From an uncultured virus (IMG/VR IMGVR_UViG_3300021399_000104) (lineage: Duplodnaviria; Heunggongvirae; Uroviricota; Caudoviricetes), in IMG/VR virus record IMGVR_UViG_3300021399_000104: a stretch of 64,000 bases of DNA; one strand, given 5' to 3'. Under the pieces are notes generated by a model. That model was not told where the DNA came from and searched no databases. It saw nothing but the letters and a program-made list of their open reading frames with translations. This document shows, piece by piece, positions 5,086-59,304 of this stretch (positions are counted from its first letter, which is position 1; each line of letters opens with the position of its first letter). The position numbers and the translations under genes are program-made.

Positions 5086-5200
5086 ATAGTTACAAATTTC
5101 ATAGAAAATTTTAGAAATTGCTTTCCACGTCATGAATAACGCGAGGGTGAACTACAACACCCGAGACACCATTTGCAAAAGCATTTGGCTTACATTTTCT
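5086..5200 (-). ncRNA. omega RNA (reRNA) scaffold overlapping tnpB 3' end
   Basis: Expected position at right end; conserved in stand-alone copy at 57436-57550. Confidence 0.7.
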
Positions 5201-6346
5201 GAGGATATTATAAGAACCATTTACATCGGCATTAATCTGTGTACCAGTGGAAGAAATAAATAGGCCTCTCTTCACCCGGTTTCCCAGGTAGGTGTCATGC
5301 TTTCCAATCTCCTCCTGATCAAGAAAACTACACTTACTGGTATATTCTTCACTGGTTATCTCCATATTAATACCCGCCAAATCACATTTATACTGAAGCA
5401 TCTGAATGAACCGGTAAAATGGAATTAAGCAAAAGTTCTGATTATTAACCTTACCCAACTTAGTGTCTTGTTTCCATCCCTTATTATTACCAACAATGAG
5501 TGTGTTGATATTTTCGGAAACTAAGTGATTCACTATTTGTCGGGTTGCTTTGTGGAAGTAATCAGATACCCGATTGGTTCTTTCTCTATTAATCCGACCA
5601 GTCCTCCGGCTTGTTTTCCATTCACTGTCTTTTAGGTAAGATTGAGCTTTAGCCATCCTCTTACTGTACTGGTGATTAATAGATTTTACTTTCTTCCCTG
5701 AGATAGCAACTGGTGTATGACCAGGCACATTACTGGTTAGAGTGGCCAAGTTATTGACCCCTAAATCAATGGCGGCATATCTGTTGTTATCTGGTTTCTT
5801 AGGTACATCTGGAACAGTATAGACAATCTCGACAGCCAGGTAACCATGTCTCGGAATTATCCTAACTTGATTAAGGTTATTGGATGTCACTCTTCCCTTC
5901 CTAAGCTTAATTTTAATATCTTCCTTCTCTAATTTCACATACCCCTTCCTTAGCCACGGTTTACTTATGGCTATGTTAGTGTAGATAACCGGAAATCGTC
6001 CATCCTTCTCTAGGTAGTGTGGAATCTTAGGCTTTCCTTTATACTTTCCTGGATTAACCTTGTAATCTTGGTTAGCAGCAAAGAAAGACTTAAAATTTTG
6101 ATCGAGTACCCGAAGAGTCTGCTGTGATGTCTTGGCAGGTAGAGCTCGATAGTCCACTTGTTCAGAGTCTTGAAATTTTTTCTGAAGGTCGATGTAGCTA
6201 AGGTACTTTCCAGAATTAAAGAATTCCTGTCTTACCTGATATAAGGCAGCATTATACAGATTCTTGGAAAGTCCACAGAGGGTATACAATCTTTGATAAA
6301 GCTTCCCATTACCCTCCTTTACAATCATATTTTCGACTAGCTGCAT
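5111..6346 (-). CDS. tnpB: TnpB RNA-guided nuclease
   Basis: LYNAAL, AIDLGVNN (RuvC-I), SEEYTSKC, INADVNG (RuvC-III). Confidence 0.95.
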   Translation of the reverse strand: MQLVENMIVKEGNGKLYQRLYTLCGLSKNLYNAALYQVRQEFFNSGKYLSYIDLQKKFQDSEQVDYRALPAKTSQQTLRVLDQNFKSFFAANQDYKVNPGKYKGKPKIPHYLEKDGRFPVIYTNIAISKPWLRKGYVKLEKEDIKIKLRKGRVTSNNLNQVRIIPRHGYLAVEIVYTVPDVPKKPDNNRYAAIDLGVNNLATLTSNVPGHTPVAISGKKVKSINHQYSKRMAKAQSYLKDSEWKTSRRTGRINRERTNRVSDYFHKATRQIVNHLVSENINTLIVGNNKGWKQDTKLGKVNNQNFCLIPFYRFIQMLQYKCDLAGINMEITSEEYTSKCSFLDQEEIGKHDTYLGNRVKRGLFISSTGTQINADVNGSYNILRKCKPNAFANGVSGVVVHPRVIHDVESNF

Positions 6347-6899
6347 CTTTTATTATCCTTTCTGTCAATCTCTTGGATCGACGTTTACCATAGAGACGAG
6401 CACAGAATGATGTAATTATAGAAACGAAATCCTGCATTAAATCTTCTTTCTCACCTTCTACGTTATTTACCACTTCTATTGATCGATTATTAAGCTGTAA
6501 GAGCTTCTGAATGTAGTTTAGACCAAACCGAGCTAACCTATCCTTATGCTCAACAACAATAACGTCAATATCAGTGTTTAAGAGGAGAGATTCCAGTTTC
6601 TTTCGTTCATCATTTAAACCAGAACCCACCTCTTTCACTACCTTTGCCACCTTATATCCCTTTGCATTACAGTAGGAGATGAGACGTTCTGCCTGTGAAT
6701 CTAAGTTAGCCTTATTCTCCGAACTGGATACTCTGGCATAGATAGCATAGGTTTTTTCTTTCTCTTTTACTTCATCGGTAATCCAAATATGACCTGTTGC
6801 GTCTGTCTCATATTTGACCTTACCTGATTTAACCCAATTCCAGACAGTCCTATAGTGTACTCCCTGAATCTTAGCATACTTTGATATCTTATACTTCAT
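6309..6899 (-). CDS. tnpA: IS607 TnpA serine recombinase
   Basis: N-terminal HTH, YARVSS catalytic motif, EVGSGLN, DRLARFG, LYGKR. Confidence 0.95.
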   Translation of the reverse strand: MKYKISKYAKIQGVHYRTVWNWVKSGKVKYETDATGHIWITDEVKEKEKTYAIYARVSSSENKANLDSQAERLISYCNAKGYKVAKVVKEVGSGLNDERKKLESLLLNTDIDVIVVEHKDRLARFGLNYIQKLLQLNNRSIEVVNNVEGEKEDLMQDFVSIITSFCARLYGKRRSKRLTERIIKDAASRKYDCKGG

Positions 6900-7089
6900 A
6901 GTTTTTAGTATTTTCACTAATAAGGTATATAAAACCTAATAAACGCAAAATATACCATTTCATAGCTGTTTTTCTATAATTTATCTAATAAATTGAATAT
7001 AATCAGTTAAATTTTAAGATACTCCAATGGTTGTCAAATTCACCTGTTGGATCGTCTATATAAATCTTCTTCGGTGTTTCCATATTATT

Positions 7090-16950: not shown

Positions 16951-16975
16951 CTCTAAAAATAAAAAATTAGAGAAT

Positions 16976-37656: not shown

Positions 37657-39573
37657 ATGAATAATTTTATTAAAATTGAAATTCCAGAAGGAATACAATT
37701 TATTGGACAGTATCCTGATTATCAATTGCCGAAGGGAGAACATTGTATTGTTGATAAAGGAGTGACTGGCTGTGGTTATACCGAAATGTGTCTCACTAAT
37801 CCAGACCATGTCATTCTATGCTCTCCCAGAAAATTACTTCTAGAGAATAAGAGAGATCAACATGTTATGGATCGAAATATCGTTTATCTTGACAATCGAT
37901 CTATGGACGGTGAAACCAAGCCTCAATTTCAGAAGCGCTTAATTGATCACATTTACAAGTGTTATTCTATGATGGCTCCTTGTAAGATCATGGTTACTTA
38001 TGATTCTTTGCCTTATGTTGTAGAGGCTTTGACGACGGATGGAACATTGACAGACATTAATAAGTTTGTTTTTGTTGTCGATGAATTTCAATGTATTTTC
38101 ACAGATGCTTTCTTCAAGGCTGCCAGAGAATTAGACTTTGTTGATGCATTACAGAAGGCATCTAGTGTTGTCTACCTGTCTGCGACTCCAATGCTCACCA
38201 AGTATCTTAATCGTACTCCAGAGTTTCAGAATTTAAATTATTATGAACTAGATTGGAGTAAAACTGGTTATGTAGAAAAGGTGAGGCTAGAGAGAAAGAG
38301 GTACCGGAATTATGTTGATGAGATTGGAAAGGTCATTATTCAATATCAGACAGGTAATTATCCAAAAACATTCAAAGACGGTCAGTGGTATGAATCACAT
38401 GAGGCCGTTTTCTATGTTAATTCAGTCACAGATATTGTCAAAGCCGTTAATAAATATAAGTTAACGCCTGAAAATACAAGGATAATTTGTGCTAGGGATA
38501 CTAAGAATGCTAATGCTTTAAAGAGAATTAAGTTCGATTTCGGATCAGTTCCATTAAAAGACGAACCAAAGCCAATGTTCATGTTTTGTACAAGATCAGT
38601 TTATGTGGGAGTTGATATGTATTCTAAGAGTGCAAAGACATTCATTTTTGCTAACCCTAACATCGATTCTATGGCTCTTGATATTGCTCTAGATCTTCCT
38701 CAAATAGCAGGTCGACAGAGAGATAAAGAGAACATGTTTAAAAATGAGATTGTAATTTACTATAAGATTTTGTCCAAAAGTAAAGAGATAACCTTAGATA
38801 ATTTCAATAAGGCTCAGGCGGCTAGAATGGATGCCACTAATACTATGTTGGATACTTGGAAAGGCTTTGCTCCAACACAACAAGGACCATGGAGACAGAC
38901 GGTTAGAGACAGTATTGCTTATTCACAATATGCTCATAACTTTGTTTCCATCTTAGAGGCCACAGGAGATATAGTTTACAACATTTACATTGACCTAGCT
39001 TATCAACGAGCCTGGGAAGTTATACAAAAAGATTATCAAGATGAGATTAACTTGACTAAAGCAATTGCATCATCTTCTATTGCTGAACGCTCTAATAGTG
39101 GTTTAACACCAGAGGAAGAAGCAGAAATTAATCAGTTCTGTTTTAACTTTAGAGGATCGTTTGAAGTTAAAATGAAGGTATATTGTGAGTTTAGAGATAA
39201 GTACCTAGATAATATTAATTTCATTGAATCTTTAAATAATCAAATAGGAGATTATAGATTTGACAGATATTATTCTGCATTTGGGACTGAAGGATGTAGA
39301 GCTAAGAGTTATAAGGAAATTGAATTAGATCGATTTATAAATAATGGTTTAAAATCTGACCAGCTACGAGAGATCTTACTAAGGACGTTTAAACTAGATA
39401 CCTTTTACTCAACTACAGAAACAAGAGATTTATTAGGAAAAATATATAAAGAATTAGGCATGACTTTAACTCCTAAAGCATCAGAATTATCCAATTATTT
39501 TGATATGAAAGATGCATTTAAAAAGATTGATGGCGTTAGAGTAAGAGGATTTAAACTTACAAAAATAAAATAG
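37657..39573 (+). CDS. SF2 helicase-like protein, candidate origin-binding initiator
   Basis: GVTGCGYT (degenerate Walker A), VVDEFQ, LSATP, GVD, QIAGRQR. Confidence 0.7.
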   Translation: MNNFIKIEIPEGIQFIGQYPDYQLPKGEHCIVDKGVTGCGYTEMCLTNPDHVILCSPRKLLLENKRDQHVMDRNIVYLDNRSMDGETKPQFQKRLIDHIYKCYSMMAPCKIMVTYDSLPYVVEALTTDGTLTDINKFVFVVDEFQCIFTDAFFKAARELDFVDALQKASSVVYLSATPMLTKYLNRTPEFQNLNYYELDWSKTGYVEKVRLERKRYRNYVDEIGKVIIQYQTGNYPKTFKDGQWYESHEAVFYVNSVTDIVKAVNKYKLTPENTRIICARDTKNANALKRIKFDFGSVPLKDEPKPMFMFCTRSVYVGVDMYSKSAKTFIFANPNIDSMALDIALDLPQIAGRQRDKENMFKNEIVIYYKILSKSKEITLDNFNKAQAARMDATNTMLDTWKGFAPTQQGPWRQTVRDSIAYSQYAHNFVSILEATGDIVYNIYIDLAYQRAWEVIQKDYQDEINLTKAIASSSIAERSNSGLTPEEEAEINQFCFNFRGSFEVKMKVYCEFRDKYLDNINFIESLNNQIGDYRFDRYYSAFGTEGCRAKSYKEIELDRFINNGLKSDQLREILLRTFKLDTFYSTTETRDLLGKIYKELGMTLTPKASELSNYFDMKDAFKKIDGVRVRGFKLTKIK

Positions 39574-39699: not shown

Positions 39700-42600
39700 A
39701 TGATTAATAATGAAGAGCAGACGATTGAGTATTTACCTTTTCCGGATTGTATTAGAAAGAGGGTAGGTGTATACTTAGGTTCGGCAGATAAAGCGGCCTG
39801 TTCGACTTGTTTACGTGAGATTACCGACAATGCGACTGATGAGATTTCGGCGGGTTTTGGTAATACTATTCACGTTAGTTCTGACTTTAATGGTTGGAAT
39901 TATGTAGCGGATAATGGTCGTGGTATTCCTATTCGTATGAGTAAGGATGTGCCGGAGAAGACTGAAGCATATTTATCTATTTCTGAGTTACATTCATCTG
40001 GTAAGTTTAATACAGGTGGTGTAGGTCGGGTAGGTTTAAATGGTTTAGGTTCTTCGGCTGTTAATGCTGTGTCGGATCGTTATGTTTTATTGATTCGTGT
40101 AACGGAGAGTAACTGGGAGGGTTCGATTCCAGAGGTTACATCTGCCTGGCGTGATCATAGTCGTGGTGAGTTATATTACATTGTGGCTTGTGAGAAGGGT
40201 CAGAAGGTGTATGAGAATTGTTTACGTTTGAAGGACATTGAGAAAATATTATTTCGAGGTATTAAGGATTATCAGCCTATACCAAAGGGGATGAGTACTT
40301 TAGTGTTTTTCAAGTTAGATTCTGAGATATTTGAGGAGTCGACAAAGCCTGAGGTACCTGTTACGAATTTAAATTACTTCTTACTAATTCAGCGTCAGTT
40401 TTTTGGTAGGAAGGACATTAAGGTATTGATTGATGGTGTTTCGTTGGAGTGTCGTTTTAATCCATATCGTTTTGAAGTAGTTAAGACGATTACACCAAAG
40501 GATCCATTATCTCCTAACAAAGAGGTGGGTATATATTTAACCTTTGAAGCTGATCCAGAGTTAAAGGACAATAGTTTCTTTGCGTCCGTTAATGGTTTGG
40601 ATTGTCGGTTAGGTTATCATGTTAATCTCACTAAGAATCTTTTCAAGGCAGCGTTCAAGGATTTATATAAAGTATCTCATGAATATGTCTTAGAGGGTAT
40701 ACGTTTTGGAGTCATCATCCTAGCCAATGAGTGTGTATATTCCAGTCAGGTCAAGGAGAATTTGAAGTCTATATCCAAGGTAAAGGCAGATGATTTTTTG
40801 CCTGTCGTTAAGGAGATAGAGAAGATATTGAAGAAGAATTCTGACTATTGGGATTTACACATTGAGAAAGTAAATGCCTTGTATGATAGTCGCCGTAATA
40901 TTGGTGCTATTGAGAAGGCAGAAAAGATGATTAATGCTTCATCTGGGACCGCTTTTTACAAGAACAAAAGTAATTTAGTAGATGGTTTCAGTGATGCGAC
41001 GTTAAAGAATCGTTGGGACTGTGAGCTTTACATTGTTGAAGGTAATTCTCCGGCAGGTTCTTTGAAGTCAGGTCGTAAGGCAGAAAATGGTGGACTAAAG
41101 CAAGCGGTATTACCATTGCGCGGAAAGGTTCTCAATGTTAGTAATATAGAAATTGATCGAGCCTTAGAGAATAAAGAGATTTCAACTTTATTTAGCATCT
41201 TAGGAGTTGGAATACAAGAAAAGAATGTAACATCTGGAGCGACTACATGGGAAGAAGCTCAGGAGTTATTGATGAAACACTCTAGATATTCTCGCATATG
41301 TCTAGCGTGTGATGCGGATTGACTAAAGCAGTCCGAGATTATAGTGATATAATCTAAAGAATCGTATTGTTGCGGGGAACTCCTGTTAGGTAGAAGGTAC
41401 TAGAAGTGTGGTTGACTTCAGTAATAATCCTTCTAATAGGGACAATCCGCATGTTAATTAAACGTTGACTTATTTGATATTTATGATACTAGATAAGTCT
41501 TTAATTGATAAGAATCTAATTTTATCAGAATGCTTTCAAATTCAAGAAGGTGTTCCTGATAAAAATTACAGAGTTGGAGAAATAATATATGATGGTCAGC
41601 CACGTATATTGGTTTTGAATGTAAAAACAAGTGAGCTAATGGAGTATTTCTTTGATGATAGTCCTTCTCAATGGATTTCTCTGTCCATTATAGACAGTAG
41701 ATTTCAGAAGGATGATTATTACATAAACCGTCAAACACTTCAAATTCGGGGTGCTAGAGGAATTATGTCCTTTGGTAAAACATATTATCCCAGAATTACA
41801 CTACATTCAAAAATATCCAAATCCAAGTCAATTACATACAAAATACATGTTCTTATTGGTAAACTGTTTATACCAAATAGTAAGCCTAAAGAGAGAACCA
41901 CTATTGATCATATAGACAGAAATACAGCTAATTATGCTCTTTCTAATTTGCGGTGGGCATCTTTCAAAGAACAACGTAAAAATCAAAGAACATTTAATAT
42001 TGAAACTGAATATGTATCTTATTTTGATAAAGGTCTTAGCAATGTGGATAGAATTTATTCACATGAAGATTTTGTAAAGGCATTTGTCAACCTAAAGGAT
42101 AGAATAAGAATATCAGGTGCAGTATTAAATAATACCAAATGTTTTGATAGATTTTGGATGAGTAGAAATCCAAAGACAGCAAGATACCTTGCATCGTTTG
42201 GCATTTTAAATATTCCAAATTTATCAACTCTTGAGTGGAGAGAACACTACTCAGGAAAACTATTAGTACATCCCTTAGGTTTATATTTGCCAAAAGGTAG
42301 GAAGTTACATGAAAGAAATATAACTCCCGGTCTAATAAATGATAAGGGAAGCTATGACTGTACTATACGCGCATTTAATAAAAAGACTCATACTATTATT
42401 GCAGAGGTGTTTTTAAATGATAATAAACCTCTCCCTTGTGGGTTTGAGGTTGATCATATAAATACTAATCCGCTTGATAATAGGGTTGAAAACCTGAGAA
42501 TTTGCAAAAATCGAGCCGAAAACATGCAAAACAAAATCACCAGGGACAAACTCTGCAAGAAAGTAGTTGGTCCTGATGGTACTATTTATGAGAGTCAGAA

Positions 42601-43277
42601 AAAATGCGCTGAAGCTCTTAATATAGATAAAAACACTATTAAGAGGTGGATAGAAAATCCAAACAAGAACTTTAACCATTTAAAAGGTTAGACGTTTAAT
42701 TAACATCAACGACTATCTCGAAAGAGAGTAGGGTGGAAAGTCAAACCTAATGTCCACTCGAAAGATACGACATCTCCCTAACCAAGAGATGAAAATATAG
42801 TCTGGTCTGTATGGAAACATACAGGAGTTCATCTTTGAGTAATCAAAGTGAGAACCGGAGTGGTGTGACGAACCATTTTGAACATTTACGTCTGATGGCA
42901 GCCAGATAACGTCATTATTATTATATGTTATTTGTAAGTATGCGAGATTTTTGATAGATCATGGACTTGTTTACATATCGGTAAGTCCATTATTTGAGCA
43001 GGATGGTAAGTTTTATTATCCTGGTGATCCGTCTGATTCGAATGGTATACCGTTAGGAATCAACACTAATAAATCATTTAGAAGATTCAAAGGCCTAGGC
43101 AGTATTCCCAAGACCATGATTTATGATGTATTTTTCAATCCTCTCACGCGAAAGCAGGTTCAAGTTACGCCAGAGGGAATTGATTATGCGATGTCTTTGA
43201 CGGAGGACATTAACGTTCGTAAGAAATTATTAATAGATGCAGGAATACTTAGTAATCCATTTAAACTCAAAGATTAG
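39700..43277 (+). CDS. Type IIA topoisomerase large (GyrB/ParE-like) subunit, spliced: exons 39700-41319 and 42891-43277
   Basis: EITDNATDE, DNGRG, HSSGKF, VEGNS, PLRGK; DAD|SDG TOPRIM motif joined across intron, 668 aa. Confidence 0.92.
41320..42890 (+). mobile_element. Group I intron with homing endonuclease
   Basis: P1 CGGAU/GUCCG with U.G at splice site, P7 GACTA (42711) / TAGTC (42798), terminal G. Confidence 0.9.
41483..42691 (+). CDS. Intron-encoded double-HNH homing endonuclease
   Basis: IDHIDRN..NY..SNLRW and VDHINTN..DNR.ENLR, C-terminal NUMOD1-like HTH. Confidence 0.85.
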   Translation: MILDKSLIDKNLILSECFQIQEGVPDKNYRVGEIIYDGQPRILVLNVKTSELMEYFFDDSPSQWISLSIIDSRFQKDDYYINRQTLQIRGARGIMSFGKTYYPRITLHSKISKSKSITYKIHVLIGKLFIPNSKPKERTTIDHIDRNTANYALSNLRWASFKEQRKNQRTFNIETEYVSYFDKGLSNVDRIYSHEDFVKAFVNLKDRIRISGAVLNNTKCFDRFWMSRNPKTARYLASFGILNIPNLSTLEWREHYSGKLLVHPLGLYLPKGRKLHERNITPGLINDKGSYDCTIRAFNKKTHTIIAEVFLNDNKPLPCGFEVDHINTNPLDNRVENLRICKNRAENMQNKITRDKLCKKVVGPDGTIYESQKKCAEALNIDKNTIKRWIENPNKNFNHLKG

Positions 43278-43282
43278 ATATT

Positions 43283-44638
43283 ATGGCAAGGAAAAAGAAG
43301 TTAGATTTAGATTTACCGTTAGCTAAGCCAGAGGATATAGTACAGAAGCCGATAGGTCAAGTTGTATCTGATGCTTACTTAGATTTTGGTAGTTACATTA
43401 ATTGTCATCGTCATTTAGCTGATTTAGATGGGTTAAAGATTTCATATCGTCGATTAATTTATACATTATTGACAAAGTTTCCTCATAATTCTTTCAATCA
43501 CACTAACACAGCGATAGCCAAAGTCGCAGACATTCATCCTCACGGTTTATCCAGTTTTAATGAGATGTGTGCTACTCTTGTTAAGTCTGGTATATTTGAA
43601 GGTGAAGGTTCATTTGGTTACACTCAGATTGATGGAGTTATAAATGAAGCGGCGAATGAGCGTTATACATACATTAAGATATCCGATTTATGGTGGGACT
43701 TAATGGGTGATTTGATTAAGGATGTTCCGGAGGTTGAGTCGCCTAACAGTAATCCAGAGCCGACATTTCTTCCCAGTCCTCTTCCGATAGGTTTGCACAT
43801 GAAGAGTTTGAATCAGGGTTTAGGTGTTTCTATATCCATGTTATATCCAAACTTTTCTGCCTGGTCGATGTATCAAGCTTACCTACATGATGATCCGAGT
43901 TTATTGGAGTCTAATGTTGATTTGATATTAGACAAAGAGAATTCGGAGTTACATAGGATTTGGAATGAGGGTCGTGGTAGGGTAGTATATTCTTATCGTA
44001 TTTCCAGGTATCGTAACAATGAGACTGGTCTTGAGGGTATATTATTTGAGACTAAGGATGGGACGGAGATATTCACGCCAAAGTTAAAGCCATTAAAGAA
44101 GTTGGCTGATGATGGTAAGGTATATATTGAAGACTTGACTGATTTTGATTCATGTAAGTTAGTAGTATATCGTATCCCTGGAGCTAGGGGTATAACCATC
44201 GACGACATTGAGGCATTATGTAGGCGTGTATGTTTCAGTGCTCAGAATTACAACTTGAACATAACGAATGGTGAGACGGCTTTCAGGATTCCGTTGCGGA
44301 GTTGGATTGATTTCACTTATCGTCGTTATATAGAATTAATCACAGAATCCAACAAGAAGAAGATTTCGAAGGTTAAGTTTGATATACAGGTTGCGGAGGC
44401 GATTCCTATTATTTCGGCTTATATAATCAACACAAATCCTCGGGCGTCAGATTCAGAGCTTGTATCTGCTCTAGGTATTTCGCCCGATGTAGTTAGTGTT
44501 GTAATGACCAAGCCAATATCCTATTTGCGAAAGAATAAGGACACTAGTGATCGGATAAAGCAATTAAAAGACAGGTTAAAGGAGTTAAAGAAATTTGATC
44601 CTGTCCGTTACACAGAAGAAATAATTAAGAAACTATGA
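43283..44638 (+). CDS. Type IIA topoisomerase small (GyrA/gp52-like) subunit lacking CTD
   Basis: DGLK..YRR, HPHG, AANERYT catalytic Tyr. Confidence 0.88.
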   Translation: MARKKKLDLDLPLAKPEDIVQKPIGQVVSDAYLDFGSYINCHRHLADLDGLKISYRRLIYTLLTKFPHNSFNHTNTAIAKVADIHPHGLSSFNEMCATLVKSGIFEGEGSFGYTQIDGVINEAANERYTYIKISDLWWDLMGDLIKDVPEVESPNSNPEPTFLPSPLPIGLHMKSLNQGLGVSISMLYPNFSAWSMYQAYLHDDPSLLESNVDLILDKENSELHRIWNEGRGRVVYSYRISRYRNNETGLEGILFETKDGTEIFTPKLKPLKKLADDGKVYIEDLTDFDSCKLVVYRIPGARGITIDDIEALCRRVCFSAQNYNLNITNGETAFRIPLRSWIDFTYRRYIELITESNKKKISKVKFDIQVAEAIPIISAYIINTNPRASDSELVSALGISPDVVSVVMTKPISYLRKNKDTSDRIKQLKDRLKELKKFDPVRYTEEIIKKL

Positions 44639-45404: not shown

Positions 45405-45532
45405 AACGTTAATTTAGGGGTATTCTATCACCCCGATTTCTTATATATGAATGAAAAATAACCTTAAGGGGCAGTTTGTGTCCCCTCTTAAATAAACATT
45501 ATTTATTAATTTTAAAAACATTATTTATTATT

Positions 45533-46846: not shown

Positions 46847-46922
46847 AGTTTTAACATAATATAATAAAGAGGAAGGTAAGGTTAAGATAAAAATTAATTT
46901 TACCTCCTCTAATTTTTTAGCT

Positions 46923-48198: not shown

Positions 48199-48200
48199 TT

Positions 48201-48710: not shown

Positions 48711-48773
48711 AGTTAAATATGGGATCGGGGTTAGGGAATTATATCTCTGCCCCACCCAAACACTTCTATATAT

Positions 48774-51599
48774 ATGAGTAAAATACTAGCAGTCGCGGAC
48801 ATTCATATTCACGCTTATCCTAATCGAAACCCAGAAAATGATTATCGACTTTACCAGGGATCGCGAGTCGTGGTTGAAAATATAATAAAAGCTGGTAAAG
48901 AAAATGGATGCGATTATATAGTCCTGGCCGGTGATATAGTCGAAAAATCAATTATCCGACCTTATGTACAGGCTGAAGTTAAATATTTCTTGGATCGTTT
49001 AATGTCAGAGTTTAAAGGTGGATGGATAATATACGGAAACCATGATCAAGACTCTAAATCTGACGACCAAAAAATAGAGGATTCAGTGTTGGGTGTTATT
49101 CTGCCTCCAAATCTTATCTATGCTCACCAAATGCAACTTGAAATGGAAGGAACTAAGATAGGATTTTCAAACTGGCAACCTAACTTCGACTTGTCATGGA
49201 TCCAGGGAAAACTAGACGTCCTCTTTACACATGCCACTATCAGCTACTCAAACAGTGATATGATACATTCACAAGAGCTGGATGAAAGTAAATTTGACCT
49301 AGCTATTTGTGGAGATATTCATAAACCAGGCCAAATAGGAAAGTATGTGTCTATTGGTATTCCACAACGATGCAAAATGTCCGATGGTGAGGAATGTACT
49401 GGTGTTATCTTTGATGTACCTACAAAAACTTGGTCATATGTAAATCTAAACCCTTCCGATAACTTAATGAAATTCGAATATACGACTGAAATTGAGAGAG
49501 AAGGATGGGATAAAGATAAACACACCTGGTATATCTATCGACAAGACCCAACGAAAAATGTTATTAACGCTAAAACTACAACAGAGGCTTGGGAAGAAAT
49601 AGGAAAATTAATTGAATCCTCGATAAAAACTAATGATCTGGTTGGAGTACATAGCGAAGTCTTAAGAAATATTAAGAACATAGATGCTGGGGAAATAGAT
49701 TTTAACTTCACCTTAACTAAATTCTATTGTAAAAATTGGAGAAGTATAGATGAATGTACACTCTATTTTCAAGACGGAGATAAAATTCTACTCCAAGGTT
49801 CTAACGGCTCTGGAAAATCATCTCTCCTCTCCGCGATAAAATATGCATTCGTTGACGTCTCTGATACAAAGGGACTAACCTCATTAAAACCATTCATTCA
49901 ATTTGGAACTAAAGAATGTGTGACAGAGGTAGAATTCCTGTATCAAGGATCTGAATGCAAAATACGTCGCGGAACAGCTACTAATGACTTTGGATTGTGG
50001 ATAAATGGAGAACAACAAAAATATAATAACAAGAAAGCATTTGAGGCCGATGTTAGAACGAAATTTCCATTCATCCTCTATATGGACACCTTCTTCCTCG
50101 ATCCAGACCATAACCAATTAATCGGAGGTATGTCAGTCGAGAAGAAATCATTAATCGTCTCTAAATTCTTAAAACTGGACCGAATTGATACCTTCCATGA
50201 TACAGCCGAAGTTATGCAGGATAATATAAAGAAGGATAAAAATGCTATCACTTCACATATCCAAGAAGCCTCACGAATAATAGAATATGTTAAGGAAAAA
50301 CTCATAAACCTGATACTCCCTAACGAATCTAAAGAATTACTCCTACAAAAACAACAGGAGGGAATTATACTGCAAAAGAAATCACAAGAATGGAATAACT
50401 TCTTAACTCTCTCAGCTAACTATCAAGCCATCATCGATACAGGGGTGAAAAAACTACAAGACTTGATGGAAAAACTGAAGAATAAAAGAAACTCCGATAC
50501 TATAGATTTTGAAATTTCCGGCCTCAAAAATAAAATCAACGAAATCCAACAATATATGGTAGAGCTTGGCAATATCAAAACTAAACTCTCCTATAAACAA
50601 AAGGAAATCGATGACCTGAAAAACGAGGGGAATAATGCATGGCGAGAGGCTCAAAGTATAGGACTGGGAAAAACTTGTAGCCTTTGTGGACAGATAATTA
50701 AAACCTCTGACGTACTACAAAGACATAAAGAAGAACTGCTAGAGAAAGTCGAGATGTTGAAAAAGAAAAAACAAGTACTCGACAAAGAACTGGCAGAACT
50801 GGAGGAACAATGGAATAACTCCGAAAATATCTGGAAACAAGGACAACAAGAAATAGAAAGGCTTAATACACAAATCTCATCACTCCTATCTGAAAAAACT
50901 TACTGGAATGGACTAGAACAAGAATTAATCAGTACTAGACATGCCATAGATGAAGCTAAAAATAAACTTAGAGGATTAGGAGCACCAGAAAAAGTAGAAT
51001 TGCCAGATAATTTCATCGAAGCTATGAACTATATATCATCGGGAATTAATACCTGGCAAACTTATGAAAACCTGGAACGAGATAAACAACAAGCGGAATT
51101 AGAAATAGGACAATACCAGGATAGAGTTAATGTCTTAGACCAACAAATACAAGCCCTCGATAAATACATTAACGTAACGGGACCCACTGGAGTAATATAC
51201 CAAGAAATCCTAAATCGACTGGCTCAACAATTCTCAGACACTACCGTTAACTATATCGTGAAAAAATATACTAACCGAGGAGATCACCTAAACCTCGAAT
51301 CACAATATAATAATAACGGAAATTGGGTGGACTATGGAGCTTGTAGCAGTGGACAAAAGACTGTTCTGGATATTCACTTCTTACAAAAAATAGTTTCAAG
51401 ATTAGGATTGCTGGTGATGGATGAATTCCTTAAACACCTAGACGGAAATAATCATGATATTTGCCTCGATATGATAAACGGAATGAATATCGGATGTATC
51501 ATGATCTCTAGCCATATGGAATCTATCGCAGCTTTCAATAACCATACTATTAAACTTGAATTAAATAACGCAGGATTAACAAAAATAAACTATGAGTGA
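48774..51599 (+). CDS. Fused SbcD/Mre11 nuclease - SbcC/Rad50 ATPase
   Basis: DIH, GD, GNHD, GDIH; GSNGSGKS, coiled coil, CSLC hook, SSGQ, VMDE, SH. Confidence 0.88.
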   Translation: MSKILAVADIHIHAYPNRNPENDYRLYQGSRVVVENIIKAGKENGCDYIVLAGDIVEKSIIRPYVQAEVKYFLDRLMSEFKGGWIIYGNHDQDSKSDDQKIEDSVLGVILPPNLIYAHQMQLEMEGTKIGFSNWQPNFDLSWIQGKLDVLFTHATISYSNSDMIHSQELDESKFDLAICGDIHKPGQIGKYVSIGIPQRCKMSDGEECTGVIFDVPTKTWSYVNLNPSDNLMKFEYTTEIEREGWDKDKHTWYIYRQDPTKNVINAKTTTEAWEEIGKLIESSIKTNDLVGVHSEVLRNIKNIDAGEIDFNFTLTKFYCKNWRSIDECTLYFQDGDKILLQGSNGSGKSSLLSAIKYAFVDVSDTKGLTSLKPFIQFGTKECVTEVEFLYQGSECKIRRGTATNDFGLWINGEQQKYNNKKAFEADVRTKFPFILYMDTFFLDPDHNQLIGGMSVEKKSLIVSKFLKLDRIDTFHDTAEVMQDNIKKDKNAITSHIQEASRIIEYVKEKLINLILPNESKELLLQKQQEGIILQKKSQEWNNFLTLSANYQAIIDTGVKKLQDLMEKLKNKRNSDTIDFEISGLKNKINEIQQYMVELGNIKTKLSYKQKEIDDLKNEGNNAWREAQSIGLGKTCSLCGQIIKTSDVLQRHKEELLEKVEMLKKKKQVLDKELAELEEQWNNSENIWKQGQQEIERLNTQISSLLSEKTYWNGLEQELISTRHAIDEAKNKLRGLGAPEKVELPDNFIEAMNYISSGINTWQTYENLERDKQQAELEIGQYQDRVNVLDQQIQALDKYINVTGPTGVIYQEILNRLAQQFSDTTVNYIVKKYTNRGDHLNLESQYNNNGNWVDYGACSSGQKTVLDIHFLQKIVSRLGLLVMDEFLKHLDGNNHDICLDMINGMNIGCIMISSHMESIAAFNNHTIKLELNNAGLTKINYE

Positions 51600-52044
51600 C
51601 AATTATTTAAAAGAGACTAACATTCCAAGTGACCTGACAGGATATATTGTGCTTGGAGAATTAGAACCGGAATTTAAAAATAAAGTCGATCAAGCCTATA
51701 CTACTGATAAAGATGCGTTCCTGTCTAATTTTATCATAGTTGTAAAAGGTGGGATTGTGATGGCCTCGCCTGAAGTGTCTGAATATTACCTGGGAGATGA
51801 GGAATTGTTTGAGATGATAAAGTCTAAAGTTAAAGAGTCAAGAGATAAACTTAATGAAATAGATTGGAATCTTCTTAATGGCTTAAATCAATACAAGGAA
51901 GCAATTGATAATGATTCTTATAAATTTGCACCTTATTATTGGTCAGGAATGAATGGAGCTAATAGTGTTTGGTGTAATCCATCTACCTTAACAACTTCAG
52001 TAACTTCAGGAACATATTATAATACTACAACAACCTCATACTAA
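51592..52044 (+). CDS. Hypothetical protein
   Basis: 150 aa. Confidence 0.7.
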   Translation: MSDNYLKETNIPSDLTGYIVLGELEPEFKNKVDQAYTTDKDAFLSNFIIVVKGGIVMASPEVSEYYLGDEELFEMIKSKVKESRDKLNEIDWNLLNGLNQYKEAIDNDSYKFAPYYWSGMNGANSVWCNPSTLTTSVTSGTYYNTTTTSY

Positions 52045-52443
52045 ATGGAAAACATATCTTACAATTACACGAGTAGATTTTCATTAGTTGAAGATTTGGC
52101 GGCATTTTGGCAAGAACGATTACCAGAGATTCCTAGAATTAAGACACTAATGATGAACGTACAGCTCTTATTCAACTTGCCATCTAATCGTGTAATGTTG
52201 GAAGTAGCTGAAGGACAAAGAATTTATAAGGTAACGTTTATGACCCCTGATGTAGAAAAAATTCCTTTCGGATGGGTTGTATATCTGCCTCAAATTAAAC
52301 AAATAGACCTGTATTCTGTTAGAGATGCCGGAATGCCTATGGTGCAATGGAAGAATAAGAAGATTGTAACTAAGAATTTCGACTATCTATTTGAACGAGC
52401 AGGTATAGAAACGATATTTAATAAACTAGTCAATTCATTATGA
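52045..52443 (+). CDS. Hypothetical protein
   Basis: 132 aa. Confidence 0.7.
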   Translation: MENISYNYTSRFSLVEDLAAFWQERLPEIPRIKTLMMNVQLLFNLPSNRVMLEVAEGQRIYKVTFMTPDVEKIPFGWVVYLPQIKQIDLYSVRDAGMPMVQWKNKKIVTKNFDYLFERAGIETIFNKLVNSL

Positions 52444-53830: not shown

Positions 53831-54787
53831 TCAATCAAGTCTTTCAACATCCCATTCCGGGTCGTGTTGCTCTAGAATGATCTTCTTATCATGAGCAGTC
53901 AGTTTTGCCAGTTCTTCTCCTAATTTGATTCCGTCTTCTCCGATGAATTTGTCTTCACCACGGAATCGGTTATATAGGTCTTGAACTTTTCTCAGCTCTC
54001 GCCTCCATGTGGGTTTGAAGCTGATTTCATAGATATTCTCTTCTGTTCCGTCCCCAATCTTTGAATATACTTTCACAGGGACAAAACCTAAGATCTCCTG
54101 TACCTTTTCTAATCCTAACCCAATATGAGCATAGATTCTCTTTATGGGCTGAGACTGATAGTATACATCACGTACAACTTTCCATTCTACTCCCGGTGCT
54201 AAATTAATAGCCTCGTTGAACCGGACAAGTCGAACGATCTTTGATTTTGATTCTTGGAGCTCTTTGATTAAGCCTCTCGACCCTCCACTCCAATCATAGT
54301 TATGTCGTAAGTAAGAGGACATTGCATCCACACTTACAGCACTTCCTTGACGACGTATTGCAGCCGCCAATTGATATTCCAGCCAAGATACCTGTTTAAT
54401 TTCAGGAACCTCGACTTCTTTCTTCTCCGCCTTTATAATAATAGGTGCGGAAGAAGTGTCCTTTATAGATACCTTCTTCTTTGGCAAAAAAGCTGCGTCA
54501 ATAGCTGCTTCTGCCTTTGGAAGGTCAGTAATTTCCCAAACACGGGGAATCTGACGACCCTTGACCTTAACAGAGTCATCAATTACTGAGTTTAACAATG
54601 GACCAAGTACTTTTGTCATGGTCAACACTGCCTGAGAAGGAACTATTTTTCTTTGTTCCCCTCGTTTGATGTTCTCCCCAGAAATGAGGAGATACAATTC
54701 ACTCGTAGTTGTGAGCTTACCACTCATCTTTCGAATGATGGTCTTATAGAAATCAGCCCACTCAAAAACCTTAGAATGAGGGTTCAT
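53831..54787 (-). CDS. Hypothetical protein
   Basis: 318 aa. Confidence 0.75.
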   Translation of the reverse strand: MNPHSKVFEWADFYKTIIRKMSGKLTTTSELYLLISGENIKRGEQRKIVPSQAVLTMTKVLGPLLNSVIDDSVKVKGRQIPRVWEITDLPKAEAAIDAAFLPKKKVSIKDTSSAPIIIKAEKKEVEVPEIKQVSWLEYQLAAAIRRQGSAVSVDAMSSYLRHNYDWSGGSRGLIKELQESKSKIVRLVRFNEAINLAPGVEWKVVRDVYYQSQPIKRIYAHIGLGLEKVQEILGFVPVKVYSKIGDGTEENIYEISFKPTWRRELRKVQDLYNRFRGEDKFIGEDGIKLGEELAKLTAHDKKIILEQHDPEWDVERLD

Positions 54788-55050
54788 ACGCTGCCCTCCT
54801 TTCTCCCAACTACCTTTCCAAGCTGGTAGTTAAGGTTGTTGTTCTCGTGGCTAAGTCTCCGGTTTTGCTTTTCCAGACCCCGAACTTCGCCCCTTAATCT
54901 TTCATTCTCAGTACCAGCAGAGTCTAACTTTCTCTGCAATTTTCTGTTTTCGTTCATCTTCCACAGGCCTATTCCGCCTAATAGAAGAATTCCAGTAATG
55001 GCAACGATAAACGGTACCACTTTCTTCTTTTTCTTTTCTTCTGTCTCCAT
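54784..55050 (-). CDS. TM + coiled-coil small protein
   Basis: Poly-Lys, TM helix, heptads. Confidence 0.7.
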   Translation of the reverse strand: METEEKKKKKVVPFIVAITGILLLGGIGLWKMNENRKLQRKLDSAGTENERLRGEVRGLEKQNRRLSHENNNLNYQLGKVVGRKEGSV

Positions 55051-55145
55051 TTTTGATTTTTTTTAATTGGTTAATACTAAAGTTAATATTTTTATTATGA
55101 ATAGGTACTCAGCTATTTTTCTATACCCTTTCCCCAAGATTTTTC

Positions 55146-55328
55146 TTAATTCTGCTGAGGAGTTTTTTCTTCCTCCTCTTCGTCTTCAACCCCAAATGCT
55201 TTCGCTAAGGGTTTTACTAGATACTCATTAGCTAATGGCGCTGTGGCATCATACACCACATTGCCAACATGGGTAGAAATTGCTCCTACCACGAACAAGG
55301 TTATACCTTGTACTACTAAACTTAACAT
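55146..55328 (-). CDS. Small hydrophobic peptide with acidic tail
   Basis: 60 aa. Confidence 0.65.
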   Translation of the reverse strand: MLSLVVQGITLFVVGAISTHVGNVVYDATAPLANEYLVKPLAKAFGVEDEEEEEKTPQQN

Positions 55329-55485
55329 TTTCTAATCTTATTTTAGTTAAACGTAAATATTTCATTACGAATAAAGTTAGCTGTCTCTCCAAGCTGTCAC
55401 CTAATTATTAATCGCATTAGGTTAACTGGATTCTTTAATATATTCTGTTGCCAAGTTGAAGTTCTCCCTCTTCAACTCCGATTCA

Positions 55486-55716
55486 TCATTCCAAGTGTCC
55501 TCCAAGGAATGATATGCCAGAATCACTGAAATTAACTTCAGTAATACCCTTGGCAATCTCATCACGAGTCAGAGGCCTGTAATCCTTATCCTTCCACAGA
55601 TAATCTTCAGGATTCTCTGCCTCTTTTACGAGATAATCAAGAAATTGTTCCCTGCTTTCAGCGGCATAAACAAGCTCGCCAAAATAATTAGGAACTTTCA
55701 ATTTAAAAATCTTCAT
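55486..55716 (-). CDS. Hypothetical protein
   Basis: 76 aa. Confidence 0.65.
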   Translation of the reverse strand: MKIFKLKVPNYFGELVYAAESREQFLDYLVKEAENPEDYLWKDKDYRPLTRDEIAKGITEVNFSDSGISFLGGHLE

Positions 55717-55900
55717 TACCTACTTATTTTAAGGTAACTACTAAACCAATTTCTATTTGAATTGGCATCAAGTCAATCTGATTTTTTATAGGTGTCAGAT
55801 AAACCTAATCATCTCTTCATTATTCCCCATCAATAAGGGATTTGTCAACTGCTTTGAATAGGTACTCAGCTATTTTTCTATACCCTTTCCCCAAGATTTT

Positions 55901-56080
55901 TTATTCTTTTTTGTCGTTGTAGAAAGGAATATGTATCCCCTCTCTACTCAATACCTCTGGAATGACATCTTCTGTCATCCAGTCCTTAATCCAGAGGCCT
56001 ATATCTTTCAGACCTCTACCAACTCCCTCTCCTATTCCTCTTCCAATAAGAGAGAAAACGTCTAATAGAATTTTATTCAT
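55901..56080 (-). CDS. 59-aa amphipathic peptide (below ORF-track cutoff)
   Basis: MNKILLDVFSLIGRGIGEGVGRGLKDIGLWIKDW...KKE*. Confidence 0.6.
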   Translation of the reverse strand: MNKILLDVFSLIGRGIGEGVGRGLKDIGLWIKDWMTEDVIPEVLSREGIHIPFYNDKKE

Positions 56081-56158
56081 ATTTTATTTATTTAGTTGTT
56101 TGTTATGAATCGAAATTTATTGTTAGTTTAATTTCGGTTGCAATAACTTGAGTATTGC

Positions 56159-56215
56159 CACTGTTTCGACCTTGTTAATGGTCTCTTCAGGATAGGAATC
56201 AACCTATCTACAGTG
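56159..56215 (-). ncRNA. Type III hammerhead ribozyme
   Basis: CACUG-UA / GAUAGG..CCUAUC / CUGAAGA / GACC..GGUC / GAAA-CAGUG: complete core and three stems. Confidence 0.92.
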
Positions 56216-56278
56216 TTTCTCATATATAAGGAAAAGCAAAGAGAGGCTACCTTTTAATTTAGATAACCTCTCTTAAAC

Positions 56279-56473
56279 TTATTCTTTTTTACTACCTCCC
56301 AGGAAAATTTCCTTTAGGAGGCCCTCGTTGTCCTGGATGAACCAACCAACCAAGACTATGATTCCAATCCAGCCCAGGATGCTGAGCCAGAATATTTGAT
56401 GAAATCCACTGGCCATAAGAGCCAGGGTCAGAATTAACAGGATCCAACCTGTTATTTTTACTAAACTTTTCAT
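56279..56473 (-). CDS. Small two-TM membrane protein
   Basis: 64 aa, hydrophobic. Confidence 0.65.
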   Translation of the reverse strand: MKSLVKITGWILLILTLALMASGFHQIFWLSILGWIGIIVLVGWFIQDNEGLLKEIFLGGSKKE

Positions 56474-56514
56474 ATTTTTTATTTTTAGTTAAACATTACG
56501 AATAAATATTTTTA

Positions 56515-57165
56515 TTTGCCTTAGACTTCTCTTCTAAGGATTTTTGATATAAAACGACATGCTTCTTGTTCGTACTCTTCGTCTACTTATTCTTCACATT
56601 GTCGTAAGTGATACTGTAAACATCACTCCCATTATATCACGATCTTATACTTAAACTATAATCATTTACAGTGGTTATATTTCTTTCTAAGTTCAGGTAA
56701 TCGATTTACCCTACCTCGTTTTGAAAGATTTCTCTAGTCCACCTTTATCAGATGTTTTCAATCTTTCTTGGTATCAGAACTTTTTCAGTCCTAATTATTT
56801 TATTTGTTATATTGAGTAGAAGTTAGACTAAAACGTCCTTACTCCTTACTCTGTTTTGAATTCCACATTTTTTTTATAAATCTTTATTCCGCTCGCCGCC
56901 TAACATACAGAAATGAAGGCTTAACAACTTCCTTCCTGAAATTAATCAGTTCTGTATGGTGTGACTACTTTATACTCGCAGCGTCGAGTCCAGCATGGCC
57001 AAACTGGTGATTCGCTATGATCTGACTTACCTCACACAACCTTTAGTATGGTCATTTAAAGATATTTCTACCTTTCTCATAGCTAGTGTCCTAAACGAAA
57101 CACGCCAAAAATAAAACGAGGTAAACTTAATTACCTCCTTTAGTGGCCCTTTTCAAGCCAATTCT
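56515..57165 (-). ncRNA. Large structured ncRNA candidate
   Basis: No ORF of 60 aa or more, promoter at 57170-57183, many local and long-range helices. Confidence 0.6.
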
Positions 57166-57203
57166 TTTATCATATATAAGGAATTGAGTGGTATTTGAGA
57201 AGG

Positions 57204-57283
57204 AAAAAATAAGGGGAACTATTCTCACGAACGGTTCCTCCTCGGTTATAAACTTTTTGGAAATAATAGATTTTGTTATTCAT
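57204..57283 (-). ncRNA. Small RNA candidate C
   Basis: Promoter 57284-57297, GUUC-GUGA-GAAU-AG hairpin, U-tract. Confidence 0.55.
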
Positions 57284-57361
57284 CTATATATAAGGAATTG
57301 AGCCGGAAATGAGAATAAAAAAAAATAGAAAACTTTTTAAGGTTCCCTATTAGGTGTTCAG

Positions 57362-57709
57362 AATACTAACTTTCATCTAGATTCCAACTAGATTCTCCGA
57401 TTCTCTTAATTAGGATTGTCGGTATGTTGGCCCTTATAGTTACAAATTTCTATAAAATCTGCTTTCTACATTTTTATGATAAACATAAAATGTGTGGATG
57501 AACTACAACACCCGAGACACCATTTGCAAAACGCATTTGGCTTACATTTTATAGCCGGCCATATTATAGGTGTCTTGTTCCTCTTTGAACTAAATGATTC
57601 ACCAATATGACCGGCTAATTCGTTATCTAAATTTTATAATACTAACTTTCATCTAGATTCCAACTAGATTCTCCGATTCTCTTAATTAGGATCGTCGGCG
57701 TGTTGGCCC
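57362..57709. repeat. 72-bp imperfect direct repeat (57362-57433, 57638-57709) flanking mini-IS
   Basis: Identical except 3 substitutions. Confidence 0.9.
57436..57641 (-). mobile_element. Non-autonomous IS607 derivative carrying omega RNA scaffold
   Basis: 57436-57450 = 5086-5100; 57499-57550 = 5148-5198 plus 1 nt; left-end-like AGTAT|..TAAAATTTA. Confidence 0.8.
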
Positions 57710-57993
57710 ATATACACCACCCAGTTAGTATCTGAAATTTTATTTTATGTTGTTTATTGTATGTTTTGAATAATGTTATTTCGTTATCACTATAATTGAT
57801 TATACAAGTTTTTAAGCTTTATAATCTTATTCATTTTACTGAATACATAATGGATATAATCTGGTTTCGATATCACCAATAATTATAGTTCTGATAACAA
57901 TTTTATTAATATGAATTTTGTGTCCCAAATAAAAATTTATATTCTTCCATATATTAGGAATTGGGGGCCTCTAAATTTCCTATCCCCCTTTAG

Positions 57994-58320
57994 TCTCTCG
58001 GTTGGGATTCGAACCCAAGACCCACAGCTTAGCTTACCACTATAGTTTTCACTACCCTATATTTTAAATATAAGTTTGTGGTCTGGACTATTTCTAAACC
58101 ATGCTATTTCTAGTTTAGGTAATCCCCGTATAGTCTCTACGCACTGCACCTATCTCTAGGGCTTGGCACGTCGTTGGCTTATTTATTTCTAAACTTAGCT
58201 TTCGTCGTTTAGGGGATTTTCTACATTCTCAGTTTCCCAAGATGCACTCCTATTTTTCGTAAGTTTTTAAGCCTACGAAAGTTTAAAGGCTGTTGCTCTA
58301 TCCAGCTGAGCTACCGAGAG
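57994..58320 (-). tRNA. tRNA-Arg(TCT) split by group I intron
   Basis: Exons 58320-58286 and 58032-57994 form a canonical cloverleaf with loop CTT^CTAA. Confidence 0.9.
58033..58285 (-). ncRNA. 253-nt group I intron without ORF in tRNA anticodon
   Basis: Follows U, ends in G, AGAGACTA and AATAGTCC P7 elements. Confidence 0.85.
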
Positions 58321-58408
58321 ATCATTTTCTATTTTTCCATATATTAGGAAAAGGAGGCTTCTAAATTTCCTTAATACAGAGTCCACAGAAAAATAAAAGA
58401 AGAGGATT

Positions 58409-58744
58409 TTACTCCTCCTCCTTCTCTTGTTGTTCTAGTCCATTCATTTCTTCTTGGACGATAGTTTTTCTGGAATCATCCATAATTAGATACAGTCCAA
58501 ACAGTGTAAATCCACAGACTATCATTATACTTATGGCCCAGAATGAAACGCTATATGAGCCAAACAGATCACACATACACATGATCGTAAAAGTCACATG
58601 TGTTATTAATCCACCAATCCAAAACTTATTAATTGGCTTGGGTAACTTTTCTTTTCCAAGACATCCAACATAGAATCTCAGAAAAAAGTACATTAACACG
58701 ACAAATCCTGTTTCTGCCGCAAGTAATCCAAAAAAGTCTTTCAT
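58409..58744 (-). CDS. Membrane protein
   Basis: Three hydrophobic segments. Confidence 0.7.
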   Translation of the reverse strand: MKDFFGLLAAETGFVVLMYFFLRFYVGCLGKEKLPKPINKFWIGGLITHVTFTIMCMCDLFGSYSVSFWAISIMIVCGFTLFGLYLIMDDSRKTIVQEEMNGLEQQEKEEE

Positions 58745-58881
58745 CTTTCTTTTGTTTTATAATTAAACATTTATTTTTCTTTCATATATAAGGAATTCAT
58801 TATATTATTAACCCAGAAAAAAAAAATAAGGGGAACTATTCTCACGAACGGTTCCTCCCTACTTTACCGGAATACTCTTCA

Positions 58882-59196
58882 TCACATATTTTTCCGATGC
58901 TTGTCAGCGATCTCCTTGAACGCCAGTTTCTTTAATATGTATGTGTCATCCTTAATAGCAAGACACATAGACTTCATCTCATCCACAAGCTCCTCTGTCT
59001 CTGGAGCTCTATTGCTTTGTAAAGATTCAAATAAAGTTCCTATCTGCTGCTCGGCCGCTATAGCCATAATCAGCAAGTTTCGGGAGTTAAAACTTCCCTT
59101 TTTGTCTGCCTGTGCTGTTTCATAGTTAACACAGGCTTGGATGTCCTTCAATTCGGACTTAAGATCCAATAACACCCTTTCTGCCATATTTCCCAT
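58882..59196 (-). CDS. Hypothetical protein with GUGA-hairpin terminator (58830-58859)
   Basis: 104 aa; promoter near 59271. Confidence 0.65.
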   Translation of the reverse strand: MGNMAERVLLDLKSELKDIQACVNYETAQADKKGSFNSRNLLIMAIAAEQQIGTLFESLQSNRAPETEELVDEMKSMCLAIKDDTYILKKLAFKEIADKHRKNM

Positions 59197-59304
59197 AATT
59201 AAAAAAATTTATGATCCCTTAGACTTTATTTCTGTCTTTAGGATCTGATTAAACAATATGATTTTATCTATCATATATAAGGCATTGAATAGTGTTCAGG
59301 AAGG

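Follow-up and report, generated by a model that had tools for sequence, protein, structure and literature searches.

A candidate RNA of about 640 nt on the minus strand of an uncultured animal-gut phage (56519..57160) represents a real non-coding unit that is led by a promoter-like motif and is probably transcribed. All positions refer to the window, which is the whole 64,000-nt stretch of DNA that was analyzed. The assignment draws on contigs from RNA libraries, the lack of an open reading frame (ORF), and codon log-odds, with both ends of the unit placed approximately. These data are best explained by a stable, trans-acting non-coding RNA, although confidence in this reading falls a little short of even.

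A Non-coding Region in a Gene-Dense Phage Genome

The window is gene-dense and phage-like, with long runs of ORFs of about 100 aa, and the sequencing runs that contain the phage DNA are animal gut metagenomes according to their run records. Among its genes are a fused SbcCD-type nuclease, ClpP-like and FtsH-like proteases, and a type II topoisomerase that is split into two pieces on the plus strand (39700..41322 and 43283..44638). Between the topoisomerase pieces (window 39700-44638, plus strand) lie a 408-aa HNH endonuclease ORF (41465..42691) and a 108-aa ORF, an arrangement that may reflect either an intron or the insertion of a free-standing homing endonuclease. An IS607-type element occupies 5086-6917 on the minus strand and encodes a Resolvase-type TnpA (6309..6917) and a TnpB (5111..6346) with OrfB_IS605 and Cas12f1-like TNB domains. 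The best TnpB relative in the species genomes is 50% identical and belongs to a Saccharibacteria MAG, and the TnpB relatives in genomes give no clue to the host. A Pfam search of 94 ORFs recognized no reverse transcriptase, Ro, or RNA-binding/RNA-partner protein in the window.

Several further features of the window lie outside the candidate. Another tRNA, at 16847-16951 (plus strand), scores 46.2 bits in Rfam; ARAGORN misses it at default settings and otherwise assigns it to Val(tac), with an insert of 31 nt. A perfect 47-nt direct repeat (55098-55144 and 55855-55901) is found 3′ of the stop codons of a 60-aa and a 59-aa ORF. The sense strand of a 318-aa orphan gene (54000-54641, minus strand) folds with a z of -5.21, as low as the candidate RNA, and among 5.8 billion proteins this gene has a 99%-identical cluster only.

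The original prediction held that the region lacks any ORF of 60 aa or more in an otherwise gene-dense genome, and this is confirmed on both strands for the whole of 56474-58408. The resulting 1,935-nt island is the largest of the seven ORF-free gaps of at least 250 nt in the window, the next being 562 nt. No ORF within 56515-57165 exceeds 39 aa on the plus strand (the next two have 32 and 31 aa) or 33 aa on the minus strand. All three stop codons interrupt the minus frames, 24, 18, and 12 times in total. The region also stays closed (no ORF of at least 60 aa) under code 11 and when TAG is read as Q, TGA as W, or TAA as Q. Recoding of stops in the phage was rejected because these alternative codes open no frame and TAA terminates 26 of its own 54 long ORFs, with TGA ending 21 and TAG 7.

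Codon-usage log-odds trained on 27 long ORFs of the window come to -0.39 for the candidate and -0.07 for its best-scoring stretch, against 0.31 ± 0.13 for genes read in sense and -0.28 ± 0.21 for genes read in antisense. A PHROG search of 56515-57165 in six frames, with X at stops, matched 0 families. Searching the island with the window's own ORFs (tblastn) gave, among the matches listed, none better than E 0.015, and blastn of 56510-57165 against the rest of the window found no similarity beyond one 18-nt exact match. Since there is no ORF, stops occur in all frames, the codon log-odds are non-coding, and no PHROG family matches, the region 56515-57165 is non-coding. A protein-coding gene or pseudogene was rejected for want of an open frame, a coding signal, or protein-family similarity; the decayed gene that was considered with the original prediction leaves no trace in the ORF, codon, or PHROG tests.

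Promoter-Like Motif and Presence in RNA Libraries

A perfect copy of the 14-mer TTCCTTATATATGA is located directly upstream of the candidate unit on the minus strand (57170-57183). Allowing up to one mismatch, the window contains this motif 14 times where 0.36 copies would be expected, a 40-fold enrichment, and 0 of 100 shuffles reach 14. A motif scan places other copies at 26334, 39631, and 45437 on the plus strand and at 56220-56233, 57284-57297, 57947-57960, 58337-58350, and 58782 on the minus strand. The orientation of the 14-mer is that of the downstream genes, and several copies stand 22-55 nt before same-strand start codons, such as 26334 ahead of the start at 26369 and 39631 ahead of the start at 39700. 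The candidate's own promoter, as originally proposed, is therefore real as an enriched motif, and its function appears promoter-like, judging from sequence and placement.

Runs listed with part of 54700-59300 number 20, of which 15 are RNA libraries, and they come from 12 studies in all. Contigs were compared from three RNA runs of three studies (X4, X5, and X8) and from one DNA run (X3). Five contigs from the RNA libraries fall entirely within the unit and together span 56541-57157, leaving out only 56838-56863; they are two of X4 (56541-56834 and 56896-57157), one of X5 (56896-57153), and two of X8 (56565-56837 and 56864-57145). Contigs of this kind give neither strand, level, nor true ends, and an RNA library can contain DNA; nevertheless, their recovery from three studies speaks against the lack of a stable transcript, which had been raised as a way in which the original prediction might fail. 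Their depths (18.9 and 6.9 in X4, 6.9 in X5, 9.5 and 5.6 in X8) compare with 2.3-4.2 for coding pieces, and these values cannot rank genes.

The upper ends of the RNA contigs, at 57157, 57153, and 57145, fall 13-25 nt below the 14-mer, whereas a DNA contig of X3 (56968-57203) continues past them, and this gives a weak hint of an RNA 5′ end. A similarly weak hint of an RNA end comes from 56896, just after the helix that closes the 5′ domain, where contigs of both X4 and X5 stop and a DNA contig of X3 (56831-56981) continues. On the lower side, the RNA contigs reach down to 56541 in X4 and to 56565 in X8. No RNA contig of X4, X5, or X8 was found on 55063-56540, which includes the downstream 64-aa ORF, or on 56838-56863, but such gaps indicate neither silence nor a cut. 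Read most simply, the contigs reflect a transcript that runs from about 57160 to about 56520 and is perhaps cut or partly ended near 56896.

Neighboring Units of the Island

The minus strand of the island is a row of promoter-led units, comprising a tRNA, a unit of about 630 nt, a short unit, and the candidate with the 64-aa ORF, and the candidate is one of several RNA-type units in it. The tRNA (57993-58320), found with ARAGORN and Rfam, has a 14-mer upstream (58337-58350) and features a 253-nt group I intron. Rfam Intron_gpI gives a full-length match here (58063-58295; 43.7 bits, E 4.3e-10), although the bit score does not reach the gathering cutoff of 50. In tRNA contigs that lack the intron, the exons meet at 58286|58032 and the anticodon is UCU (Arg); ARAGORN alternatively reads the tRNA as tta (stop; a UAA suppressor), with an intron of 241 nt. 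The intron is covered by an RNA contig of X5 (58082-58286), and a contig of X4 has a joint at 58032/58286 (side 24, likeness limit 85). This X4 joint may come from the intron-less tRNA of another organism, and splicing of the phage tRNA is putative only.

The second ORF-free non-coding unit (57310-57940, minus strand, about 630 nt) has its own 14-mer at 57947-57960. It features 82-nt direct repeats (57357-57438 and 57633-57714, 93% alike) that flank a 194-nt insert, and the last 115 nt of the insert (57436-57550) copy the 3′ end of the window's tnpB (5086-5198), with 96% likeness over 55 nt. The repeat begins exactly where the TnpB guide would lie. RNA contigs of X4 (57387-57692) and X5 (57403-57749) together cover 57387-57749 of this unit. 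Downstream of the 14-mer at 57284-57297 (minus strand), the motif and terminator scans show a short unit with a terminator hairpin at its end. Direct repeats of 44 nt at 57198-57241 and 58815-58858 (95% alike) themselves form terminator hairpins, each with GTTCGTGAGAATAG as its loop. Between them lies a cassette of 1,616 nt with the second RNA unit, the tRNA, and a 111-aa ORF. A hairpin resembling these repeats, followed by the promoter motif, also occurs near 29275-29310.

On the other side of the candidate is the 64-aa ORF (56279..56473, minus strand), a two-helix membrane protein by sequence, which has no 14-mer of its own and is followed by a terminator hairpin (56274-56239). Its one relative, P0003, is 83% identical and is encoded on a JGI contig of 2,854 nt that is absent from IMG/VR.

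Predicted Fold of the Candidate RNA

The minus-strand RNA, which is C-poor (13% C), would fold into a 5′ domain of about 265 nt with two branched sub-domains (57160-56894) and a 3′ hairpin domain of about 330 nt. The predicted 5′ domain begins with the hairpin UGGCUU/GGGCCA (57144..57160, mean pair probability 0.92). A terminator-like hairpin from the terminator scan, GAGGUAA/UUACCUC followed by a U-rich run (57105..57137, pair probability 0.48), comes next and is spanned, or read through, by contigs of X4, X5, and X8. The following branched domain (57014..57083) would be closed by GCUAUGA/UCAUAGC (57083-57077/57020-57014, pair probability 0.90) and would contain a GAAA-loop hairpin at 57075-57058. 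A three-way junction domain (56894..56983) ends the 5′ domain in the prediction. Its inner helices CAUACAGAA/UUCUGUAUG (56958-56950/56912-56904), CUGA/UCAG, and GAAGG/CCUUC have pair probabilities of 0.93-0.98, and its closing helix CGCUGC/GCGGCG has one of 0.53.

A weakly paired, A-rich linker (56852..56893, pair probabilities about 0.25) separates the two predicted domains, and no RNA contig bridges 56838-56863. The 3′ domain (56554..56851) is predicted as a row of hairpins with pair probabilities of 0.43-0.99, at 56851-56814, 56795-56773, 56767-56723, 56711-56695, 56670-56633, 56628-56606, and 56605-56554. The helices GAAAGAUU/AAUCUUUC (56767-56760/56730-56723) and ACUGUAAA/UUUACAGU (56672-56665/56620-56613) are present here. 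The 3′ terminal hairpin CCUUAGA/UCUAAGG (56519..56539, with arms at 56539-56533/56525-56519) has a pair probability of 0.98 and likely marks the 3′ end; on the minus strand it is not followed by a clean U-tract, and the terminator scan lists it as a plus-strand terminator only. A stem search also places AAAACGAGGUA at 56712..56722, an 11-nt complement of 57123-57113, and the resulting 11-bp pair of 57123-57113 with 56722-56712 overlaps the 3′ arm of the hairpin 57137-57118. All the minus-strand helices that had been named at the outset, as well as this long-range pair and its overlap with a local hairpin, are thus present in their places. For ACUCG/CGAGU, which is legible in the minus strand, the minimum-energy fold prefers an alternative pairing.

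The description of this fold as ornate is so far not supported by comparison with controls. There are 19 perfect stems of at least 7 bp, where 200 dinucleotide shuffles give 14.0 ± 4.0 and 26 of them have 19 or more. For local stems the count is 8, compared with 4.3 ± 2.0 (10 of 200 reach 8), and a stem of at least 11 bp is present in 12 of 200 shuffles. Both the number of helices and the 11-bp long-range pair are therefore close to chance (p ~0.05-0.13), and the helices are barely above it. Folding of the whole minus-strand unit gives a z of -4.94 with 20 shuffles and -5.16 with 60, against -2.52 and -1.88 for the plus strand, an asymmetry that favors a minus-strand RNA as far as folding predictions can indicate. 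Among twelve sense-strand pieces of coding genes of the same length, z runs from +0.43 to -5.21; two are at or below -4.3, and one matches the candidate. Folded singly, the 5′ domain has a z of -2.94 and the 3′ domain one of -3.6; of 34 coding pieces with a length of 271 nt, 4 fold lower than the 5′ domain. Fold stability is not outstanding in this genome, as coding sequence folds as well.

Relatives and Strain Variation

Only near-identical copies of the candidate were found. In INPHARED, blastn gave two short matches only, both under the tRNA part, and megablast with 37657-52443 gave none, which indicates that the phage has no close relative in that collection. IMG/VR searches with neighbor proteins found no relatives, and a search there with SbcC returned a single relative that is 49% identical (L001, on G001, a 97-kb record rated 26% complete). 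G001 was rejected as a source of homologs, as it is not syntenic (best match E 0.126) and has no tRNA, no copy of the 14-mer at up to one mismatch, and no comparable island. A 24-nt pattern from the candidate had 0 matches in IMG/VR and one in the JGI metagenomes (L010); this copy belongs to the same strain, its single mismatch over 5,392 nt falling outside the unit. A 23-nt pattern had 0 matches in 185,579 species genomes. The collection of homologs proposed with the original prediction thus yielded near-identical strains and nothing beyond them.

The variant strains X8 and X3 show four changes in the unit, three of which fall in predicted helices and keep the pairing. The change at 57155 in the 5′ hairpin turns U.G into C-G, the change at 57014 in the GCUAUGA/UCAUAGC helix turns C-G into U.G, and the change at 56775 in the 3′ domain turns G.U into A-U, while 56656, also in the 3′ domain, is a mostly unpaired place. 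All of the pair-keeping changes are one-sided transitions, with 0 compensatory changes, and one-sided transitions often preserve pairs by chance. The strain changes agree with the predicted fold and prove little about it.

The unit differs from the window at 3 of 555 nt in X8 and 3 of 387 nt in X3, compared with 0.5-7.8% for flanking pieces. Because the strains are mosaic, this lower divergence is soft evidence. The 1,616-nt cassette (57204-58819) is missing in a DNA contig of X3, where 57203 is joined to 58820 (side 236), and the candidate and its promoter 14-mer are retained in this form.

Proposed Model and Alternative Explanations

In the preferred reading, the candidate is a separate minus-strand transcription unit that would produce a non-coding RNA of about 640 nt, from 57160 to about 56520. 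Transcription would start about 10-13 nt downstream of the 14-mer, pass the leaky terminator-like hairpin at 57137-57118, and end at or near the hairpin 56539-56519, ahead of the membrane-protein ORF. The A-rich linker would join the two domains and may serve as a cut site. The RNA would be one RNA gene of the island, beside the intron-bearing tRNA and the unit with the tnpB 3′ copy, and it may act in trans through base pairing or through binding of a protein. Its weak points are the stem and fold statistics, the C-poor sequence, and the lack of a recognizable partner protein in the window and of homologs beyond near-identical strains.

One concrete and testable lead for base pairing is the 18-nt match noted above, in which 56938..56955 (minus strand) is perfectly antisense to the plus-strand gene 37657..39573 at 39124-39141. 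This segment lies in the apical part of the three-way junction, which is the best-supported junction of the candidate, and its putative target site is deep within the gene (codons 490-495). A match of this length is reached by 3 of 300 shuffles, a p of about 0.01 before allowing for orientation, and the match does not extend, as its flanks show no alignment.

The alternative that survives best, although it is still unlikely, is that the region is a cis-acting leader of the 64-aa ORF (56473..56279), in which attenuation or a cut at the hairpin 56539-56519 would be balanced by read-through that permits expression of the ORF. No 14-mer separates the unit from the ORF, the next one (56220-56233) being beyond the terminator of the ORF, and the poor U-tract of the 3′ hairpin makes read-through plausible. 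Another terminator-like hairpin is located near the 5′ end of the unit. However, a leader of about 690 nt would exceed the roughly 30-130 nt seen in the other units of this phage by a factor of five to twenty. The 11-bp pair is the sole alternative pairing found for the 5′ terminator-like hairpin, and with its complement 400 nt further downstream it would form too late for antitermination during transcription. Furthermore, DNA contigs of X3 that match 56394-56487 run into unrelated sequence above 56487, which suggests an ORF start that lacks this leader, although these contigs may belong to other phages. No contig among X3, X4, X5, and X8 joins the candidate to the 64-aa ORF, and contigs cannot show transcripts.

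The region may instead be transcribed debris, i.e., a decayed gene or mobile-element remnant behind an active promoter that yields a functionless RNA. This explanation is doubtful, and it stays alive because the neighboring unit demonstrably carries mobile-element debris in its copy of the tnpB 3′ end (57436-57550). The candidate's minus strand has G over C and A over T, like the surrounding minus-strand genes; its structure statistics fall within those of coding controls; and a lack of relatives is what would be expected of non-conserved DNA. Against debris stand the absence of a coding signal in any frame (even the maximum codon score is negative), the empty six-frame PHROG search, and the lack of similarity within the window beyond 18 nt. 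The few differences in the variant strains relative to their flanks, and the retention of the unit in a strain without the adjacent cassette, also argue for more than debris.

A replication origin with a structured pre-primer transcript, comparable to ColE1 RNA II or the T4 origin transcripts, is highly improbable: the island is long, free of ORFs, and rich in A+T (27-39% G+C), it has several promoters, and it lies about 2 kb from the reversal of gene direction and cumulative GC skew at ~59,250, but the skew merely follows gene direction, 56515-57165 contains neither iterons nor tandem repeats, and nothing ties the candidate RNA to DNA synthesis.

Comparison With Known RNA Systems

No known RNA family fits the candidate. 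At gathering score, Rfam 15 assigns no family to the candidate in a search of the 64 kb, and searches of pieces of 2.8 kb, 801, 326, and 396 nt with E up to 10 gave nothing below E 0.3, with ROOL and GOLLD absent. This bears out the statement, made at the outset, that no family could be assigned. As a method control, a 351-nt search recovered the group I intron of the neighboring tRNA, which the 2.8-kb search had missed; the Rfam search is therefore sensitive at the scale of short pieces. ARAGORN with a relaxed threshold found no tRNA-like unit in the candidate. The candidate was also rejected as a group I intron, as 56450-57250 has no Intron_gpI match and there are no flanking exon frames. 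Literature searches by text, not by sequence, found no description of the candidate RNA.

TnpB guide RNAs (omega or reRNA) are described as products of the tnpB 3′-end region (PMC8612924, PMC11061315). Likeness to this system is found in the neighboring unit at 57310-57940 rather than in the candidate, as that unit copies the tnpB 3′ end and is present in RNA libraries. The candidate differs in having neither IS607-type element sequence nor an adjacent tnpB, and it was rejected as a TnpB guide RNA or IS607 right end after blastn of 56510-57165 gave no match in 4800-7100.

The comparison with ROOL and GOLLD that accompanied the original prediction holds for the position near a phage tRNA and fails for the family models. 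GOLLD is described as a large RNA that is often found near tRNAs and in prophages (PMC5737381; 10.1101/2024.12.08.627333). The candidate resembles it in size class, habitat, and tRNA context, but GOLLD membership was rejected as the Rfam covariance model is not matched. ROOL, first found in cow-rumen data, averages 581 nt and is reported as often near tRNAs, in phages or prophages (PMC5737381). The candidate is similar in length (about 640 nt), in its animal-gut phage origin, and in its distance of about 830 nt from a tRNA gene (57993-58320). Although context and length fit, ROOL membership was rejected because the covariance model is not matched, and the fold predicted for the candidate combines two branched sub-domains with a series of hairpins.

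T4 RNAC and RNAD lie in the T4 tRNA gene region and are about 120-140 nt long. The candidate likewise belongs to a large phage, one with a two-piece topoisomerase II and a fused SbcCD-type nuclease, but the T4 RNAs, compared here by description, are much shorter. In one account, they are phage-encoded small stable RNAs with a function that is still unknown (PMC9697503).

It is conceivable, although improbable on present evidence, that the candidate is the first member of a new class of large stable phage RNAs in a dedicated RNA-gene island, with a role comparable to that of ROOL or GOLLD. If so, the RNA might bind a host factor or silence a phage gene via the 18-nt antisense match. Were it a leader or debris instead, the region would illustrate that an ORF-free gap, a promoter, and many helices do not alone make an ornate RNA. 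The 1.9-kb island appears to hold RNA genes only, with parts present in RNA libraries of several independent studies. The candidate is a family-less phage-encoded non-coding RNA near tRNA genes, and nothing about it requires a new mechanism. Large phages carry stable RNAs with unexplained roles, such as T4 RNAC and RNAD, ROOL, and GOLLD, and the candidate, if functional, would stand beside them as an example of an expressed, family-less RNA in a tRNA context.
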